DNA from: Candidatus Helarchaeota archaeon
Lineage (GTDB): Archaea > Asgardarchaeota > Lokiarchaeia > Helarchaeales > RDOG01
NCBI GenBank assembly: GCA_029838215.1
Contig: JALGVI010000003.1
Location: forward strand, 53,350-85,349
Direction: 5' to 3'
Length of the DNA stretch: 32,000 nt
This document shows, piece by piece, positions 15,800-32,000 of this stretch. Below the pieces are notes generated by a model. The model had not been told where the DNA came from. It saw nothing but the letters and a program-made list of their open reading frames with translations, and made no database searches. The position numbers and the translations under genes are program-made. The first letter of the stretch is position 1; every line of letters starts with the position of its first letter.

Positions 15800-19901
<4,102 letters not shown>

Positions 19902-20150
19902 TTTTTCTTCTCAACCGTTTAAAAATTCATTAATCAAATTAGAATTGCAGAGAACCCCTATCACGATTGGATTCTGGTGTTATGTGGAAAGGATTTTTCA
20001 GTGATGGGATGCGCGATCAACTCTTTAATTGATTAAAACTTTGAAAAATTCACTAAGAAGGGAATTAAGACTCACTAAAAATTATGGTTGCTCTTTAAAT
20101 TTCCATTGCGAAAATCTTTATAAATTTTTCGATAAGTTTCGGATGTTTTA

Positions 20151-21809
20151 TCAAATTGTCGGTTTTGGTTGCCTATCTGGTGGAAGTCCCGGCATTGGTG
20201 CTCCAGCATGCGCTTCTGGAGACATTAATTTTGCGGCAACAACATCATCAATTCGAAGAATCATTGAAGCCGCTTCAACCGCAGATCTAAGCTCTTGAAT
20301 TTTTACCCAAAGTGGTTCAATAACCCCTATCTCGAACATGTTTGCAATTTTCCCGTCATATAGATTAAGGGCAAGCCATTTACTTTCTGGATTTTCATGA
20401 GCTGCTCGCAATAATACCAAATTATCGATGGGATCGAATCCTGAATTAGTTATTAACGTTCGAGTAATGGCTTCGAGTGCATCACAATAAATTTCGATGG
20501 CTAGTTGCTCTTTCCCTCCGACCGTTTGAGCAAAACGGCGTATGTTCTTTGCCAATTCAACTTCTACGGAGCCACCACCTCCTAAAACTTTATTCTTTTG
20601 TAAAACATCAGCAATTACTGAGAAACCATCGTGTAGAGCTCTTTCTGCTTCATCAAGTAGATTATCCACTCCACCACGAAGAAGAACTGCCACGGACTTT
20701 GGATTTTTGCAACCCTCGATAAAAATAAACTTTTTGTTACTAACTAATCTTTCTTCTACTAACTCAGCCTCGCCCAAGTCATCTTCAACCAAATCATTTA
20801 TATCCGTTATAATCTTGCCTTGGGTGGCCATCTTGAGTTTTATCATTTCTTTCTTCTTAATCCTGCTGATTGCCATGATACCCTCTTGGAGCATGAATTC
20901 TTGGGCTATGTCATTAATTCCTTTTTGGCAAAAAACGATAGTTGCTCCTGTTTTTTTAATCTTGTCAACCATTCGTGCAAGGATTTCCTCTTCTTCATCA
21001 TGCAATGCTTTGATTTGTTTTATGTCCGTTATTCTTATTTGGGCATCAATTTTTGTTTTTTCAATTTCCAGCGGACAATCAATTAATGCAATTTTTGCAT
21101 TCACGATTTTTCTTGGCATTTCTGGATGAGCGATATTTTCTGCAATTATTGCTCCCTTTATGAGTTTAGTATCTGTCAGACTTCCTCCCTGACGTTTTTG
21201 GATCTGGATCCTTTCAACGTTCACTTGGATTTCAGTCCCGCGTGTTTCCTTAATGGACATAACGGCTTCCACGCAGATTTTTGCGAACCTATCCTTGACC
21301 GTTGAAACCGCTTTACTATTCAAGGAAGTCAAAGCTATTTTATGTAATATGTCCGTGTCTTTTTCAGGATCGATAGAAATGGAAATATCTTCAAGAATTT
21401 CTTCTGATTTTGAAAGAGCTTTTTTAAATCCTTTAACAATATGTGTTGGATGAACTTTCAAGTCAAGAAGGATTTCTGAACGCTTAAGCAGTTCTCCCGT
21501 CATGATCACGGCAGATGTAGTGCCATCCCCTACTTCATCATCCAAGGCTCTTGCTACTTCTACAATCATCTTCCCTGCTGGATGTTCTATTTCGAGTTCC
21601 TCAAGGATCGTGGCTCCATCATTTGTGATGACGATGCCTCCAAGTCGATCTACGAGCATTTTATCCATGCCGCGCGGTCCAAGCGTGCTTTTAACCGCTT
21701 CACTAATGACTCTGGCTGCTTTTATGTTTATTTTTTGGGCGTCTTGTCCTTCTACTCTTTTGCTACCTTCTTTTAATATCACTACAGGCTTGCCTGTTAA
21801 TTGTGTCAT
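20151..21809 (-). CDS. ths: Thermosome subunit (group II chaperonin, CCT/TCP-1 family)
   Basis: [22 protein letters not shown] and [10 protein letters not shown] are the TCP-1 signatures. Length 552 aa. Confidence 0.95.
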
Positions 21810-21819
21810 GCTTTTTTAC

Positions 21820-22185
21820 CTAAAAAATTGCAATGTCTACTTCATCATTTAGTTTAAATTCATTAAGATTTGTTGGCAAGATTATCTTTAGTGGAATACC
21901 ACCGATTAGAATGATTAACGTGCTCTGATCTTCTTGTTTTTCAACTGATTCTACTGTTCCATGACCAAAAAACTTTGCATTCTCATCGCTCAGTTTTTCA
22001 CTTTTTCTCGCAATTTTGAAATGAACGTCTTTAGTCGTATCAAAGGCAATTAATCGTTCCGGAGTATTTAATTTAATTTCAATTTTTTTCTCTTTTAATG
22101 AAAAATATAAAATTTTCATCTCTGCGGCTTTCGGTGTTTCGATTTTATCGACTTTTACTTTAATATCTAACAAAATTTCCACCAA
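21820..22185 (-). CDS. rpo8: Small OB-fold-like protein resembling RNA polymerase subunit Rpb8/Rpo8 (RpoG)
   Basis: The C-terminal half [50 protein letters not shown] aligns by eye with yeast Rpb8 [50 protein letters not shown]. Shared features are G-T, a hydrophobic run followed by GG, NLN, and a terminal hydrophobic strand. The start is TTG 22185 or GTG 22182. It lies 10 nt upstream of the thermosome gene. This rests on a recalled alignment, not a profile search. Confidence 0.5.
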
Positions 22186-22200
22186 AAATTGGTTAAAATA

Positions 22201-22677
22201 TTATTTTCTTTTTCGAAATTTTTCCATTTCTTCAATTTCGGCCTCTGCTCCAGGACCAAATTGCATTTTTTCAACGAATTTATTATAGACATTGCGCACG
22301 CTTTCAGCAAGAGGGCCCGAACCTTCTACTCCAAATTCCGTTACTTTAATTTTATTTAATACCATGATAGATCTTGCGTCTGGGAAATATTGCACTTGTC
22401 CTTTTGGAAATAATTTGGATATCTCCTCGGTCAAGGCCTGCAAGTCAAACCCTTTTGCTGTTTCTATAATTTCTAGAATATGTTGTCCATAAATAAAGAT
22501 TCTTTCAAATTCATTTCCTTCATCATCTTCGGCAGGCCCTAAACAAATGCTCATTTTTTGACGTTCCATTCCTAAGAGGGTACCGCTATATACTTTATTT
22601 GCAGTAATAACTTTAACTTCTGCATCAATTAATCCGGAAATTTCTCTAAAAAAACGCTGTTCTGAAGTTTGACTCAT
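22201..22677 (-). CDS. Sm-like (LSm) fold protein with an LSm12-type AD-like C-terminal domain
   Basis: The N-terminal Sm pattern is LIDAEVKVITANKVYSGTLLGMERQKMSICL...FERIFIYGQHILEIIE. The C-terminal LTEEISKLFPKGQVQYFPDARSIMVLNKIKVTEFGVEGSGPLAESVRNVYNKF resembles the human LSm12 AD region ([43 protein letters not shown]). A GGAGGT SD lies 6 nt upstream of ATG 22677; the ORF track's TTG 22695 start contains that SD. Confidence 0.6.
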   Translation of the reverse strand: MSQTSEQRFFREISGLIDAEVKVITANKVYSGTLLGMERQKMSICLGPAEDDEGNEFERIFIYGQHILEIIETAKGFDLQALTEEISKLFPKGQVQYFPDARSIMVLNKIKVTEFGVEGSGPLAESVRNVYNKFVEKMQFGPGAEAEIEEMEKFRKRK

Positions 22678-22724
22678 TTTCTTACCTCCAAACAATCATC
22701 AGGACGTATTTTTCCTGCTTTTTC

Positions 22725-24344
22725 TCAATTCTTAAATATTCTTTCAATTTTAATTTTTAAATGTTCGTGATTATCAAGAACAGTTCCGCTGGATTCGTAG
22801 TTCTTAACAACCTGTTGGAATAACTGCAATTTTATGTTATATTTGATAATATCTGGATCTTGAAAATCTTTTGGATCGTACAAGATTATATGGGAAAATT
22901 GATTTCGATAAGAATTCATGAAATTCTCAATGACCTGCAGGCTTCTAGAAGGTATTTGATTGCATAAATCCAGAGGATATTCATTTTGGATTAATGGGTA
23001 TGTACCTTGTAAATCCTCTAAAATGATCCCAAAAAGAGGTGAAACATGAGCGACTTGCACCAAATGTCTTTCTTTTTCTATTATTTCTTCAAGTATTTTA
23101 TTAACATATCTTTTAAATTTTAAATTCAAATCATTTAATGGGTATTCTGGGACTAATAGTAATACTGACCGTGCATTTAGCGATAGATTTTGCATTTTCA
23201 TTTGGTGTCGGCGAATCTCAGGTCGATCTAGAGATCCCGTGTCAGCGTAAAAAAAAGCCGTGCTTTTTGACGCAAGCTCATAGGGCTCAAGCCGTTCGCC
23301 ATACTTTTTCAAAATGTACCTGAATGCTTCTAATAATGCAGGGTGAGCACTCACCCTAGTCTGAACCAATTCCCAGATTCTACCTGTTCGAATTGCCTGT
23401 CTGATACTTTTTAATTCTTGAAAAGTCACGTATAAGTTGTGTTCTGCTATCAAGCATTGGCGCTCTTTTAAAGTCATCTTCAACAGTTCTTTTGGCTTAT
23501 ATTTTAGGCAAATGGGGCAGCTACAAGGGAACTCGTGGATTTTTTCCAGTCGTAAAGTTCCCATGTTTGTCAGGTATCGGTCGTTTTTTGCAAATAATGC
23601 ATACGCAGAAGAGTCAAATATGTCTGCTCCACAGGCAATGGCTAGAGAGAAAAACATGGGATGACCAATTGAGAAAGCATGAAGCGGTCGTGATTGAATC
23701 ATGCTAAGGCGTGCCACGATTATTTGTTCTGCGACCTGCTTGTAATTGTACGACATCAATGATGGTGCTAAAGTACCCAGCGGATGGTAATCAAATTCGA
23801 GTTCTGACATGAGTCTTGCAGATTTTTCTACCAAGTCAAGAAATTGTCCTCCTTGAATCGGTCCTGCCCATAAAATGCCCGAATCTTTTTGTCTCAAGTT
23901 TAATGCTTCGATACCGCGCCCATGTGTCGTCTCCACGCCCTTTTCTGCTTCTTCATGCGAATCGGTATCGGTAAAAATGTCCAGAATTGTCCCAATATCG
24001 GGTTTTAAGAGATCTTGGAATTCAACTATCTCTTGATTGGAAACTTCCAATTCTTCTCGATACATCCAACTTTGATATGCACCGGAATCAGTCATTATGA
24101 TACCATCATAGGAAATAAGGGAATGTACTCCCTTGGTTGCCTGTTCTCTCAGCTCTGGAGTATTGTAAATGATGTATGCATTAGTAATCAACCCATTCAT
24201 CCCAATCTTTTTCATCTCATTCGGAGTAATTAGAGGAATATTTGGGTTATAAACTGGCAATAGATTGGGCGTTTCGATAATGCCGTGTGCTGTTTTTAAC
24301 TTCCCTATTCGTGCAAGTCCATCTTTTTCGATAATCTCGAACAT
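22725..24344 (-). CDS. tgtA: Archaeosine tRNA-guanine(15) transglycosylase (ArcTGT), no recognisable C-terminal PUA domain
   Basis: The N-terminus FEIIEKDGLARIGKLKTAHGIIETPNLLPVYNP is typical. MTDSGAYQ is the catalytic Asp block. The Zn site is CSCPICLKY...AEHNLY. GGAG lies 7 nt upstream of ATG 24344; the alternative start is TTG 24356. Confidence 0.9.
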   Translation of the reverse strand: MFEIIEKDGLARIGKLKTAHGIIETPNLLPVYNPNIPLITPNEMKKIGMNGLITNAYIIYNTPELREQATKGVHSLISYDGIIMTDSGAYQSWMYREELEVSNQEIVEFQDLLKPDIGTILDIFTDTDSHEEAEKGVETTHGRGIEALNLRQKDSGILWAGPIQGGQFLDLVEKSARLMSELEFDYHPLGTLAPSLMSYNYKQVAEQIIVARLSMIQSRPLHAFSIGHPMFFSLAIACGADIFDSSAYALFAKNDRYLTNMGTLRLEKIHEFPCSCPICLKYKPKELLKMTLKERQCLIAEHNLYVTFQELKSIRQAIRTGRIWELVQTRVSAHPALLEAFRYILKKYGERLEPYELASKSTAFFYADTGSLDRPEIRRHQMKMQNLSLNARSVLLLVPEYPLNDLNLKFKRYVNKILEEIIEKERHLVQVAHVSPLFGIILEDLQGTYPLIQNEYPLDLCNQIPSRSLQVIENFMNSYRNQFSHIILYDPKDFQDPDIIKYNIKLQLFQQVVKNYESSGTVLDNHEHLKIKIERIFKN

Positions 24345-24359
24345 GTTAAACTCCAAGTC

Positions 24360-28854: not shown

Positions 28855-28992
28855 TATAATTTCCTCGACCCAAATATCCATTAAATTTATTCCTGAGTGA
28901 TAATCGTTCGAATGAAGGCATTTGAAAACGAAATCTAATCTATCAGGATTACCATATTAGTATTGGAAACATCGTATTTATTGATGATTGCA

Positions 28993-29532
28993 ATGTCGAA
29001 ACGGCGACAGGAAACAAGAATTAGCAAGTTCATGAGCTATCTGCTTCGTCACGATCCGCAGCATCTGAAGATGGATCAGGAAGGATTCGTGGACACGGAT
29101 GAGTTCCTGAAGTTATTACAAGCGCGTTTTAACTGGTTCACGAAATCGGATTTAATTTCATTAGTTAATGAAAACGAGCGATATGAAATCTCGGATAATC
29201 GAATTAGGGCCGTTTATGGTCATTCAATTGATGTTTCTCCTAAACTCGAGACAGTACAAGTTAATATCTTGTTTCACGGAACATCTCAAGAGTCCGCGGA
29301 AAGAATTCTCAGGGATGGACTGAAGTCAATGAACCGAAATAAAGTCCATCTTTCGAGAACCGTCAGCCGTGCGAAAGTCGTTGGACGACGGAAGGCGCGC
29401 CATCCCGTCATTCTAATAATTGATGCCAAATCAGCTTCTGATGATGGTATTGTATTTGAAAAAGCAACGGATGACGTTCTAGTTTGTAACGAAATTCCTC
29501 CAAAATACATCCGAGTTTTGGACGATGAATGA
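28993..29532 (+). CDS. kptA: RNA 2'-phosphotransferase Tpt1/KptA
   Basis: SKFMSYLLRHDP, GFVDTDEFL, RAVYGHSI, LFHGT and NKVHLS are the Tpt1/KptA R-H-R-R catalytic-tetrad blocks. The start is uncertain among TTG 28963, ATG 28984 and ATG 28993. Confidence 0.9.
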   Translation: MSKRRQETRISKFMSYLLRHDPQHLKMDQEGFVDTDEFLKLLQARFNWFTKSDLISLVNENERYEISDNRIRAVYGHSIDVSPKLETVQVNILFHGTSQESAERILRDGLKSMNRNKVHLSRTVSRAKVVGRRKARHPVILIIDAKSASDDGIVFEKATDDVLVCNEIPPKYIRVLDDE

Positions 29533-29539
29533 TGAACGG

Positions 29540-31924
29540 CTAGAGTTGGTGTTCTAGCCGTTTTATGATATCACGTTGAATGGAAGACCCGAGATCAACG
29601 AAAAGAGCATTATATCCTCCCACTTTCACGATGAGATCTGGATAGTTCTCAGGGTGTTTTTGTGCATCTTTCAGCGTGTCGGTTGAAACAACATTGGGTT
29701 GAACTTGCATTCCTCCCAATTCGAAATAAGTCTTTAATAGGGCATGGAATTTCTCGACTTTTTCATTAGATTGAACGGATAACGGATGAAAACGAACGTT
29801 TAATGCGATTCCATTTATTGCGAGATCGTAGTCGAGTTTTGCTACGGACTTCAGGATGGCGGTAACGCCTTTTTTGCCGACTCTGTTTACTGGCGACAAG
29901 CTATTTGAAATTGGTTCTGCTCTTTTTCTTCCATCAGGTGTTGCATTCAAGAGAAGTCCCATTAACACGTGAATCCCCATTGAATATGCCCCTGGATTAA
30001 ATCGCCCGCCTCGGAAAGTCTCATGCTTTACAACTTCCGTGCAGAATAACCCCCAAATCTGTCTTGCAAATTCATCTATCTCTTCTTGGTCGTTTCCCCA
30101 CTTTTCATACTTGTTAATCAATTGTTGTCGCAGCTCTCGACGTCCTTTAAAATTGGAATTCAAGACCTCAACGAGCTCCGAAATCGTGATTAATTGATCG
30201 TCATAAACGAATTTCTTGATGTTATAAAGGGAATCCACCAACGTGGCGAAACCATATGCAGTAATTGAAGAAAAGTTGTATTTTGCTCCACCTCGCGTGA
30301 TATCTTTTCCTTGTTCCATGCAATTATCTATTGTCGCCGAGATAAAAGGTTGTTCGTAATGTATACTTGCTTCCTCGTCCCAAATGTTTGCTATCTTCAC
30401 TGATTGCTCGATATTGAATCTCAATTGTTGTTTAAATGCATCGAGGAAATCATCAAATGTCCGAAATGTAGCAGGATCTCCCGTTTGGAGTCCGTTGAGC
30501 CTATTCGAGAATTGACTATATCCATTATTCAGCACTAATTCCAGAACACCCGGTAGGTTGATAAACATGGCTCCCGTACAGGCAATTGTATTTGCTTGAG
30601 ATGTGGGTTCAACACAGCCAATAATCACGTAATTGCGAGCATCTTCGAGTGAGTACCCGCTTTTCTGCAATGCTCGGATGATAACGTCGTCATTATAAAA
30701 TGCGATTCCTGAGGTTTCTTGAAAAACCCTTATTGCTTCAAAGAAAAATTCTCTGGGAGTATTTGGATGAATCCGCACCGATAAATCGCTGGTGGCAACT
30801 CTTAGTTTTCTTTGTGCTTCCAAGAAAAGATATGATAATTCATTTGTACCATCCGTCCCATCTTTTTTTAGTCCCCCAATTGTAATGGTCTGCGTGTTTA
30901 ATCCCAAGGCATTAGAAGCCATTGAATACTCGTCTTGTAGCATCGTAGAATTCCAAGTTAATTTAAGATTTAATTCTTCAATGAGTTCCAGCGCAAATTC
31001 CTGCGTGAGCTTATTTTCCTGCCTGTCTTTTTCGTAATAGTGCCATAGGATTTGATCCAAACGCCCTAATGCCAAGACGCTGCGGTAACAAATGATGTTT
31101 ACTATGTTCTGCGTGAACCATATTGATTGAATTGCTTCATGAAAAGTGCCTGCAGGATTTTCAGGAACACGATTCAGGGTTTCCGCAATTAATTTTAATC
31201 GATTTTTCTCAGCTGGATCGGCAGCATTTGTAGCCAATTCATCAGCAAGTTGGGCATGGCGCCTTGCAAATCGGATTCCTGCCTCGTAATATATCTTCAC
31301 GGCTTCATAAAAATTGAATTTCTTTTCGAATTCAGGATCGTTTCGATCGAGTTTATCTTGACAGGTAGTCGCTTCCTGAATTATCCCCTTGTAACCTAAA
31401 TTCAAGACTTTTTCATATCCAAAGCAAATATGTCCTTCATTTGTGCCTGTCATGATGGCGACATTGGGCGTGTATGCTTCTCGCCGCGACGGGTTCTCGA
31501 TAAGGTTTTCACGTGCCATTCTTCCAAATATCCGCGTGTCATACAGCGATTTATCTCTCCAATAAGGAAGATATTGCTGTAATTCCTCAAATTCAGCCTG
31601 ATCAATTTGAAACGGCTGGACTTTTCTCGAACGAATATGGTCGACGTGTTTCTGTTTTGTGAAATCTCGAAATGAATAAAGGTCTAGAGCAATTTTTTCA
31701 CCTAAATTCTTACTCGTTTCCGCTCCGACCAGTATTTCATCATCTCTTATAAAAATCGTTTGTTTTTCAAGAGTATTTTGGAGTGCTCTGGCCCTCTTGA
31801 TGATGATTGGTTCTTGCTCATGCTGTTTGTATGCTTCTGTATAGAACTTAGCCCGCTCGATGCAGACTTCATAAGGACTCGTCAGAAGCTGTTCTTTAAG
31901 TCTTGCAATTCTCGGTTCAAGCAT
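29540..31924 (-). CDS. Glycyl radical enzyme of the PFL2 / glycerol-dehydratase-like family
   Basis: The C-terminal glycyl-radical motif is VKVGGYNALFVDL (radical Gly codon at ~29615-29617). The thiyl-Cys loop is IIGCVEPTSQ. The N-terminal ERAKFYTEAYK...IIIKRARAL...IRDDEILVG is typical of PFL2 enzymes. The start is ATG 31924 (MLEPRIARLK); the ORF-track alternative is TTG 31963. Confidence 0.9.
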   Translation of the reverse strand: MLEPRIARLKEQLLTSPYEVCIERAKFYTEAYKQHEQEPIIIKRARALQNTLEKQTIFIRDDEILVGAETSKNLGEKIALDLYSFRDFTKQKHVDHIRSRKVQPFQIDQAEFEELQQYLPYWRDKSLYDTRIFGRMARENLIENPSRREAYTPNVAIMTGTNEGHICFGYEKVLNLGYKGIIQEATTCQDKLDRNDPEFEKKFNFYEAVKIYYEAGIRFARRHAQLADELATNAADPAEKNRLKLIAETLNRVPENPAGTFHEAIQSIWFTQNIVNIICYRSVLALGRLDQILWHYYEKDRQENKLTQEFALELIEELNLKLTWNSTMLQDEYSMASNALGLNTQTITIGGLKKDGTDGTNELSYLFLEAQRKLRVATSDLSVRIHPNTPREFFFEAIRVFQETSGIAFYNDDVIIRALQKSGYSLEDARNYVIIGCVEPTSQANTIACTGAMFINLPGVLELVLNNGYSQFSNRLNGLQTGDPATFRTFDDFLDAFKQQLRFNIEQSVKIANIWDEEASIHYEQPFISATIDNCMEQGKDITRGGAKYNFSSITAYGFATLVDSLYNIKKFVYDDQLITISELVEVLNSNFKGRRELRQQLINKYEKWGNDQEEIDEFARQIWGLFCTEVVKHETFRGGRFNPGAYSMGIHVLMGLLLNATPDGRKRAEPISNSLSPVNRVGKKGVTAILKSVAKLDYDLAINGIALNVRFHPLSVQSNEKVEKFHALLKTYFELGGMQVQPNVVSTDTLKDAQKHPENYPDLIVKVGGYNALFVDLGSSIQRDIIKRLEHQL

Positions 31925-32000
31925 AATTTCAGTCCAACCTATAAATGAAATGATACGTGACAAATGATTCTTTATCGTGCAAAAAGTTTTCAGATGAATT

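Follow-up and report, generated by a model that had tools for sequence, protein, structure and literature searches.

The crystal structure of SmAP3 from Pyrobaculum aerophilum (Protein Data Bank, PDB, entry 1M5Q) was reportedly presented by Mura et al. in 2003. SmAP3 is the third, two-domain Sm paralogue of Crenarchaeota (PMC4500138; PMC3710371), and three smAP genes have been noted for TACK and Asgard archaea (PMC12817955). For one protein of this kind, Sso0276, the motifs Lsm_C, Lsm14 and SM-ATX have been listed (PMC5570065). Here we describe a relative of these proteins that is encoded in a 32,000-nucleotide stretch of archaeal DNA, the window, on contig JALGVI010000003.1. Its open reading frame (ORF) is exactly the one delimited in the initial annotation of the window (22201-22677, minus strand, ATG to TAA, 158 amino acids). 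This gene, smAP3, encodes an 'augmented' archaeal Sm protein of the SmAP3 type from a Helarchaeales-like Asgard archaeon, in which an Sm barrel is followed by an Lsm_C domain, and we put at about three in four the probability of the overall account developed below.

A member of the SmAP3 family

The window protein belongs to the SmAP3 family, and both of its domains have the fold of that family. A Pfam scan gave a single match, to Lsm_C (PF14894), at 62.7 bits for a family cutoff of 27 bits (E=2.7e-17, residues 86-137). When PDB sequences were searched with the protein, only one entry was found, 1M5Q (E=6.7e-20); the match runs from residues 9-137 of the query to positions 1-128 of the chain, spans both domains and has an identity of about 32-33%. 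A profile of the Helarchaeales family also recovered 1M5Q alone (E=1.1e-24). Moreover, 1M5Q was the top Foldseek match in the PDB of an AlphaFold2 (AF2) model of the protein (E about 1e-12, 124-126 columns), which was built on an alignment of 111 family sequences and has a mean predicted local distance difference test (pLDDT) score of 86. The canonical Sm/LSm rings that come after 1M5Q in the Foldseek list cover the N-terminal half of the protein only. P. aerophilum SmAP3, Sso0276 and Saci_0660 have the same two-domain architecture and the same Lsm_C domain as the window protein, which differs from the P. aerophilum and Sulfolobus proteins in coming from an Asgard archaeon (Helarchaeales) and in carrying an extra charged tail of 18 residues.

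The N-terminal part of the model (residues about 5-72) is a helix followed by a five-stranded Sm barrel, in agreement with the Sm fold that had been recognised from the sequence at residues ~8-72. The block-mean pLDDT of residues 11-70 is 89-96, and Foldseek aligns this region with canonical Sm/LSm/SmAP structures at E about 5e-5 and a TM-score of about 0.8 on the target. The Lsm_C domain consists of helix 79-87, strands 95-98, 103-106, 110-113 and 116-118, and helix 122-140, with block-mean pLDDT values mostly of 89-93 that fall to 79-81 at the edges. It had been proposed that the ~85 C-terminal residues are not a low-complexity tail; this holds for the folded domain at about 76-140, and only residues 141-158 form a charged tail modelled with low confidence. 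In the family alignment the C-terminal tails of the homologues are acidic or variable and differ in length.

The closest relatives in the databases are 85-87% identical, are annotated as 'Lsm family RNA-binding protein' and come from Helarchaeales, and for this reason we place the window in an Asgard archaeon. A total of 34 homologues with this label come from Helarchaeales, Helarchaeota or Hodarchaeota. An exhaustive HMMER search, covering 1.84 billion cluster representatives, returned at least 150 representatives of the SmAP3 family, mostly of 130-160 amino acids, and a scan with one genome per species located smAP3 in Helarchaeota, Odinarchaeia, Thermofilum, Sulfolobales, Desulfurococcaceae and Bathyarchaeia. 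Among the 13 matches of the exhaustive search that were inspected, no recognisable LSm12-like protein was found; the remaining matches are mostly of SmAP3 size, and the longer ones are archaeal multi-domain proteins with Lsm_C. The initial annotation had regarded the architecture as a possible eukaryotic-signature feature, in the belief that archaeal Sm proteins have no such second domain. Neither view can be maintained, as SmAP3 has been known since 2003 (1M5Q; PMC3710371; PMC4500138) and the same architecture occurs in all the groups just named, in TACK as well as in Asgard archaea (PMC12817955). Because the family is spread over both, the architecture is not a eukaryote-only signature, and the gene is a further member of an already known family, not a eukaryotic-signature novelty.

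In Pfam and NCBIfam scans the window protein matched none of the profiles LSM, AD and Gemin6_C, in Pfam even at E<=10, yet the Pfam LSM profile matches 81 of the 111 family members. As a separate observation, the Sm domains of the family weakly match the profiles of several 'long' eukaryotic LSm proteins: SM-ATX in 50 of the 111 members, Gemin6 in 43 (best E=7.1e-6), LSM14 in 35 and LSM12_LSM in 12. The RimP_C profile is also weakly matched by the Sm domains of 23/111 members.

Lsm_C and the AD domain of LSm12

Eukaryotic LSm12 (PF21166 and PF09793) likewise has an N-terminal Sm domain that is followed by an alpha-beta4-alpha module. We consider it probable that Lsm_C is distantly homologous to the alpha-beta4-alpha core found in the LSm12 AD domain and in Gemin6_C. 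This relationship is apparently unreported, since it is stated in no paper found by literature searches joining SmAP3 or Lsm_C with LSm12, AD, Gemin6 or Asgard. For the comparison by hhalign, the alignment of 111 SmAP3 sequences was set against one of 73 vertebrate and yeast LSm12 sequences. Sequences of human LSm12, human Gemin6 and yeast Lsm12 were validated with Pfam (AD, E=3e-25 and 5e-25; Gemin6_C, E=8e-44); they served only to retrieve database sequences, except that Gemin6 was also used directly in the Gemin6_C comparison. A single collinear alignment across both domains was obtained, with 124 columns, P=1.3e-4 and a probability of 53%, which became 66% when AF2-derived secondary structure was included. 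In this alignment the Lsm_C domain faces LSm12 residues 111-175, and the core pair is the one that the initial annotation had drawn by eye, window RSIMVLNKIKVTEFGVEGSGPLAESVRNVYNKF against a 39-residue LSm12 segment; its by-eye alignment of the Sm parts was recovered as well. The C-terminal domains alone gave P=0.002-0.007, and in a null made by shuffling the columns of the AD alignment the real C-terminal-domain score was reached in 2/300.

Structural comparison points in the same direction. The AF2 model of LSm12 is independent, as no templates were used and its alignment contained no archaeal sequences. It shows an extra helix (84-106), then helix 111-123, strands 127-130, 133-136, 140-142 and 151-153, and helix 157-184. 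When the two AF2 models are laid over the alignment made from sequence only, all six Lsm_C elements fall on six LSm12 elements, and four of the six share boundaries. Moreover, when Foldseek compared the LSm12 model with 350,542 PDB chains, the top match was 1M5Q_A (E=3.1e-4), the sole one at E<=1e-3, with 163 aligned columns that cover the entire 126-residue chain. Two further 1M5Q chains gave the same full-length alignment (E about 2.5e-3), and nearly all remaining matches are of Sm-domain length (about 60-120 columns). For a local alignment to extend across a gap of ~35 residues, the score gained on the far side must exceed the gap cost, and the C-terminal domain therefore adds real similarity. 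The AD-like character that the initial annotation had ascribed to this domain is therefore upheld in part: the resemblance is seen in profile-profile and fold comparison, with SmAP3 as the PDB entry that the LSm12 model matches best, over both domains, and the assignment to Pfam AD has to be given up. That annotation had named a profile search without an AD match as counting against its view, and this is what was obtained, archaeal Lsm_C being matched instead.

Several results weigh against the homology. The window protein does not belong to Pfam AD, whose profile (PF09793) has no match in it at E<=10, and when the 111 members were scanned singly, neither AD nor Gemin6_C ranked among the 25 families with the most frequent matches. 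When LSm12 sequences were searched by hmmsearch with the hidden Markov model (HMM) of Lsm_C, and SmAP3 sequences with that of AD, the real scores equalled those of the controls, which were tenfold shuffled decoys. As the real and shuffled score ranges overlap completely, the relationship is invisible to methods that compare an HMM with sequences. The LSm12 profile found only weak Edc3 Sm matches among PDB sequences, and neither 1M5Q nor a solved LSm12. The C-terminal domain alone gives only P about 0.003-0.007, and a shallow profile made from Helarchaeales only produces the same alignment at P=0.086, which is not significant. The Foldseek TM-scores between LSm12 and 1M5Q are low (0.25/0.38, root-mean-square deviation 13.6 Å) because the two domains are hinged differently, and the two other 1M5Q chains do not outscore Sm-only matches. 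LSm12 also differs in its long extra helix 84-106 and in its invariant motif, PPY..EN, where SmAP3 has TE.GVEG.GP. Opposite the LSm12 residues P-P-Y-x-x-x-N (P144, P145, Y146, N150) stands T-E-F-G-V-E-G-S-G-P, with a 5-residue gap facing P-Y-Q-V-E. The LSM12_LSM profile (PF21166) has no match in the window protein, and the best of the weak matches in the 12 family members has E=1.8e-5.

It could be argued from such results that Lsm_C and AD, both small alpha/beta domains, have no common origin and came by chance to the same succession of a helix, four strands and a helix, and that SmAP3 is purely archaeal and has no eukaryotic descendant. The sequence evidence for the C-terminal domain is marginal (P 0.002-0.007), the HMM-against-sequence scores equal those of shuffled controls, the conserved motifs of the two families differ and the TM-scores are low; a mobile Lsm_C could also have joined an Sm domain independently. 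We nevertheless find this explanation rather improbable. The domain order is identical in SmAP3 and LSm12, and the sequence-profile alignment is in register with 6/6 independently predicted secondary-structure elements. Moreover, the Foldseek alignment crosses the ~35-residue gap into the C-terminal domain in all three 1M5Q chains, and the signal rises with added family diversity (from P=0.086 to P=1.3e-4).

The same comparison might be taken further, to mean that the window protein is a true LSm12-type orthologue with Sm and AD domains and, as such, an Asgard-specific eukaryotic-signature protein. The collinear two-domain hhalign match, the SmAP3 structure as best PDB match of the LSm12 model and the Asgard (Helarchaeales) genome from which the window comes would all be in keeping with this, but we consider it very improbable. 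Pfam finds neither AD nor LSM12_LSM in the protein; P144, P145, Y146 and N150, which are invariant in LSm12, are missing from it, and by far its closest relatives are the crenarchaeal and Asgard SmAP3 proteins. Since the SmAP3 family is equally common in TACK and Asgard archaea, there is no Asgard-specific eukaryotic signature, and restricting the profile to Helarchaeales weakens the match to LSm12 (P=0.086, compared with 1.3e-4 for the pan-archaeal profile). A distant homology of Lsm_C and AD within an archaeal SmAP3 family is thus the reading that we prefer.

Gemin6, from the survival motor neuron (SMN) complex, is of nearly the same size as the window protein (167 vs 158 amino acids) and also combines an Sm-like domain with a compact C-terminal domain of about 80 residues, which is related to AD by Pfam cross-matches. 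The Gemin6 and Gemin6_C profiles of Pfam have no match in the window protein. Gemin6_C and Lsm_C can be aligned over their whole length, with no counterpart of the helix insertion of LSm12, but with a single Gemin6 sequence the result is not significant (P=0.057). Gemin6 pairs with Gemin7 as a heterodimer and is not known to form homomeric rings (PDB 1Y96). LSm12, like SmAP3, is not known to keep a canonical uridine pocket, and it acts as an adaptor of ataxin-2/Pbp1; we know of no archaeal counterparts of partners of this kind. It has also been reported as a receptor of nicotinic acid adenine dinucleotide phosphate (PMC8346516).

Conserved residues and a possible mode of action

The best-conserved part of the SmAP3 family is a glycine-rich motif in the C-terminal domain (residues 114-128), whose family-wide form is E114-x-G-V-E-G-[ST]-G-P-x-A-E-R-V-R. 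It forms a loop leading into the N-terminus of the long helix, and four of its positions are each kept in at least 90% of the members: G116 (107/111), V117 (102/111), G119 (109/111) and G121 (103/111). The residues with which canonical Sm proteins bind uridine are not kept in the family. The position of the canonical Asn in Sm1 is occupied by Ser43 in the window protein, and by S in 44, N in 24 and T in 19 of the 111 members; that of the canonical Arg in the Sm2 'RG' is occupied by Tyr63, and by Y in 35, N in 19 and S in 15 members, and also by P. The 'RG' arginine is likewise lost in P. aerophilum and Sulfolobus SmAP3. In contrast, the canonical SmAP1 and SmAP2, which share the Sm fold with the window protein (TM-score about 0.8 on the target), are single-domain proteins of 70-80 amino acids with a conserved uridine pocket of Asn and Arg-Gly, whereas the window protein has a second domain and is without the pocket residues.

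Lsm_C also stands alone as a module in unrelated archaeal proteins. Cases without an Sm domain, found in the exhaustive search (P0200, P0240, P0256, P0258, P0261, P0268, P0270, P0276, P0280 and P0302), include tandem copies and fusions with zinc ribbons, Prok-RING, glyoxalase or metallophosphatase domains, and further fusion partners are Mrr_cat endonuclease, C2H2 finger and AA_kinase domains. Lsm_C is therefore not confined to Sm proteins and behaves like a mobile module. A different kind of match was seen in a repetitive protein of 1477 amino acids (P0186), in which 21 repeated stretches match positions 2-27 of the SmAP3 profile only, the region of the N-terminal helix.

Because the pocket is lost, the C-terminal loop is the most conserved part and Lsm_C is found free-standing, we suggest that the Sm domain is an oligomerisation platform and the C-terminal domain a binding surface. 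By analogy with P. aerophilum SmAP3 (1M5Q), the Sm domain would build a heptameric ring and two rings would stack into a 14-mer. In such an assembly the C-terminal domain would be displayed seven or fourteen times and could be the surface at which a partner or ligand is engaged. SmAP3 would then act as a scaffold or as an adaptor in the manner of LSm12 and Gemin6, and not as a classical U-tract RNA chaperone. The loss of the uridine pocket agrees with reports on S. acidocaldarius, in which SmAP3 is dispensable and recovered negligible RNA in a pull-down, with the reservation that the tag was C-terminal and adjoined the conserved domain; SmAP1 and SmAP2 of this organism are essential and bind much RNA (PMC12817955).

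SmAP3 might also be an ordinary Sm RNA chaperone, binding U-rich single-stranded RNA in its pore like SmAP1 and SmAP2, with a C-terminal domain that only stabilises the 14-mer. The Sm fold is clear, the C-terminal domain of Pae SmAP3 supplies most of the ring-ring interface (PMC3710371) and Sso SmAP3 co-purifies with SmAP1 and SmAP2 (PMC5570065), all of which would suit such a function. However, this function is unlikely in view of the canonical Asn/Arg pocket that is not conserved (Ser43, Tyr63) and of the negligible RNA recovered with S. acidocaldarius SmAP3, though the protein was C-terminally tagged (PMC12817955). Moreover, it is a surface loop of the C-terminal domain that is most strongly conserved, and this domain works in non-Sm contexts as well. 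A scaffold or adaptor role is therefore preferred here.

The rpoG-smAP3-tgtA neighbourhood

The genes tgtA and rpoG adjoin smAP3 (Table 1), an arrangement that is widely conserved. The initial annotation had placed it downstream of a tRNA-modification gene and upstream of an RNA polymerase subunit-like gene, and both neighbours proved to be correctly named, the first as tgtA (TIGR00432) and the second as rpoG/Rpo8 (PF16992). The minus-strand cluster of the window has the order NAPRT-like, tgtA, smAP3, rpoG, thermosome, rpoA', rpoA'', nusA-KH.

Table 1. Position of smAP3, of its parts and of the adjoining genes in the window.
Feature	Position	Strand	Basis and remarks
tgtA (archaeosine tRNA-guanine transglycosylase)	22725..24356	minus	TIGR00432 E=1.7e-150 and Pfam TGT; ends 47 nucleotides upstream of smAP3
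Shine-Dalgarno-like GGAGGT	22684..22689	minus	read from sequence; 6 nucleotides upstream of smAP3 ATG
smAP3 (158-residue Sm + Lsm_C protein)	22201..22677	minus	ORF listing and sequence; ATG 22677, TAA 22201-22203
Sm domain, residues 1-73	22459..22677	minus	AF2: helix 5-14; strands 20-25, 29-37, 44-51, 60-62, 67-72
Lsm_C domain, residues 76-140	22258..22452	minus	Pfam PF14894; AF2: alpha-beta4-alpha
Top-conserved family motif, residues 114-128, E-F-G-V-E-G-S-G-P-L-A-E-S-V-R	22294..22338	minus	column frequencies
Charged C-terminal tail, residues 141-158, and stop codon	22201..22257	minus	low-confidence helix, block-mean pLDDT 53-58
rpoG (RNA polymerase subunit G / Rpo8)	21820..22185	minus	PF16992 E=2.9e-8; starts 15 nucleotides downstream of smAP3

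An alternative start of smAP3 at TTG 22695, which would give a protein of 164 amino acids, was rejected. The product of 158 amino acids was retained because the TTG version overlaps the GGAGGT and the homologues begin at the ATG, as MSQT or MSRV. Scans of the window for tRNA genes and Rfam families found none.

The neighbourhood was followed over the window part 21820..24356 (minus strand) and loci L001-L010 and L017-L019. The tgtA gene is on the same strand as smAP3, at a distance of no more than 70 nucleotides or overlapping it, in 9/10 representative genome loci; in the Bathyarchaeia locus it lies about 2 kb away, on the same strand. It precedes smAP3 in three loci of Helarchaeota type and follows it in Odinarchaeia, Thermofilum, Sulfolobales and Desulfurococcaceae. 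The rpoG gene adjoins smAP3 on the same strand in Helarchaeota and divergently in Odinarchaeia, Sulfolobales and Desulfurococcaceae. P. aerophilum/Sulfolobus-type SmAP3 genes have the same neighbourhood in crenarchaeal loci, with a different order: tgtA-smAP3-rpoG on one strand in the window, whereas in Crenarchaeota a divergent rpoG is followed by smAP3-tgtA. A thermosome gene is found near smAP3 in Helarchaeota, Sulfolobales and Desulfurococcaceae. The most divergent full-length member of the family (E=7e-5) again has the arrangement rpoG-smAP3-tgt on three metagenome contigs, with tgt within 70 nucleotides, and a distinct gene for a TGT_C2+PUA protein comes two genes later. The pattern is not universal, as one 55-kb contig carries smAP3 between a methyltransferase and a GHMP kinase gene, and another lineage has rps17e downstream of smAP3; both cases weigh against a fixed association.

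As the adjacency survives changes of order and orientation, it suggests a functional link to the archaeosine tRNA-guanine transglycosylase and/or RNA polymerase. Judged from the gene neighbourhood only, the partner process might be tRNA modification by ArcTGT and/or transcription, an assignment that is tentative and somewhat doubtful. No paper describing the rpoG-smAP3-tgtA neighbourhood, which is kept from Sulfolobales to Asgard archaea, was found, and a literature search combining archaeosine with Sm-like proteins was uninformative.

Some further features of the region were observed. In the TgtA protein of 543 amino acids Pfam shows the catalytic TGT domain only, and residues about 340-543 have no match to TGT_C1, TGT_C2 or PUA at E<=10. 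In a crenarchaeal-type locus (L017, 5897..6415) a gene two positions downstream of tgt codes for a separate protein of 172 amino acids with TGT_C2 and PUA. SmAP3 may go together with a TgtA that is split or lacks PUA. The thermosome gene of the window is directly upstream of rpoA' and rpoA'' (15800..21809, minus strand), a layout shared by loci L001-L003, and neither rpoB nor rpoH precedes rpoA' in the window, the usual archaeal order being rpoH-rpoB-rpoA'-rpoA''. Elsewhere in the window a Tpt1/KptA RNA 2'-phosphotransferase gene (28963..29532, plus strand), which is related to tRNA splicing, adjoins a gene for a pyruvate formate-lyase-like glycyl radical enzyme (29540..31963, minus strand).

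LSm12 serves as an adaptor in ataxin-2 granules, and Gemin6 as one in the SMN machine that assembles small nuclear ribonucleoproteins. If Lsm_C and AD are homologous, both proteins gain an archaeal ancestor and the Sm+AD architecture has an archaeal forerunner. In that case 1M5Q, the only crystal structure of an augmented archaeal protein, would serve as a template for the uncharacterised AD domain. It is conceivable, at a little below an even chance, that LSm12/Gemin6 have their prokaryotic forerunner in the SmAP3 of TACK and Asgard archaea, with an architecture that predates eukaryogenesis, and that, taken with the rpoG-smAP3-tgtA arrangement, the ancestral role of SmAP3 was in tRNA-guanine transglycosylation or with RNA polymerase. 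This neighbourhood provides the first testable functional hypothesis for SmAP3 since the structure of 2003. Since S. acidocaldarius tolerates the deletion of smAP3 (PMC12817955), this hypothesis can be tested at once.

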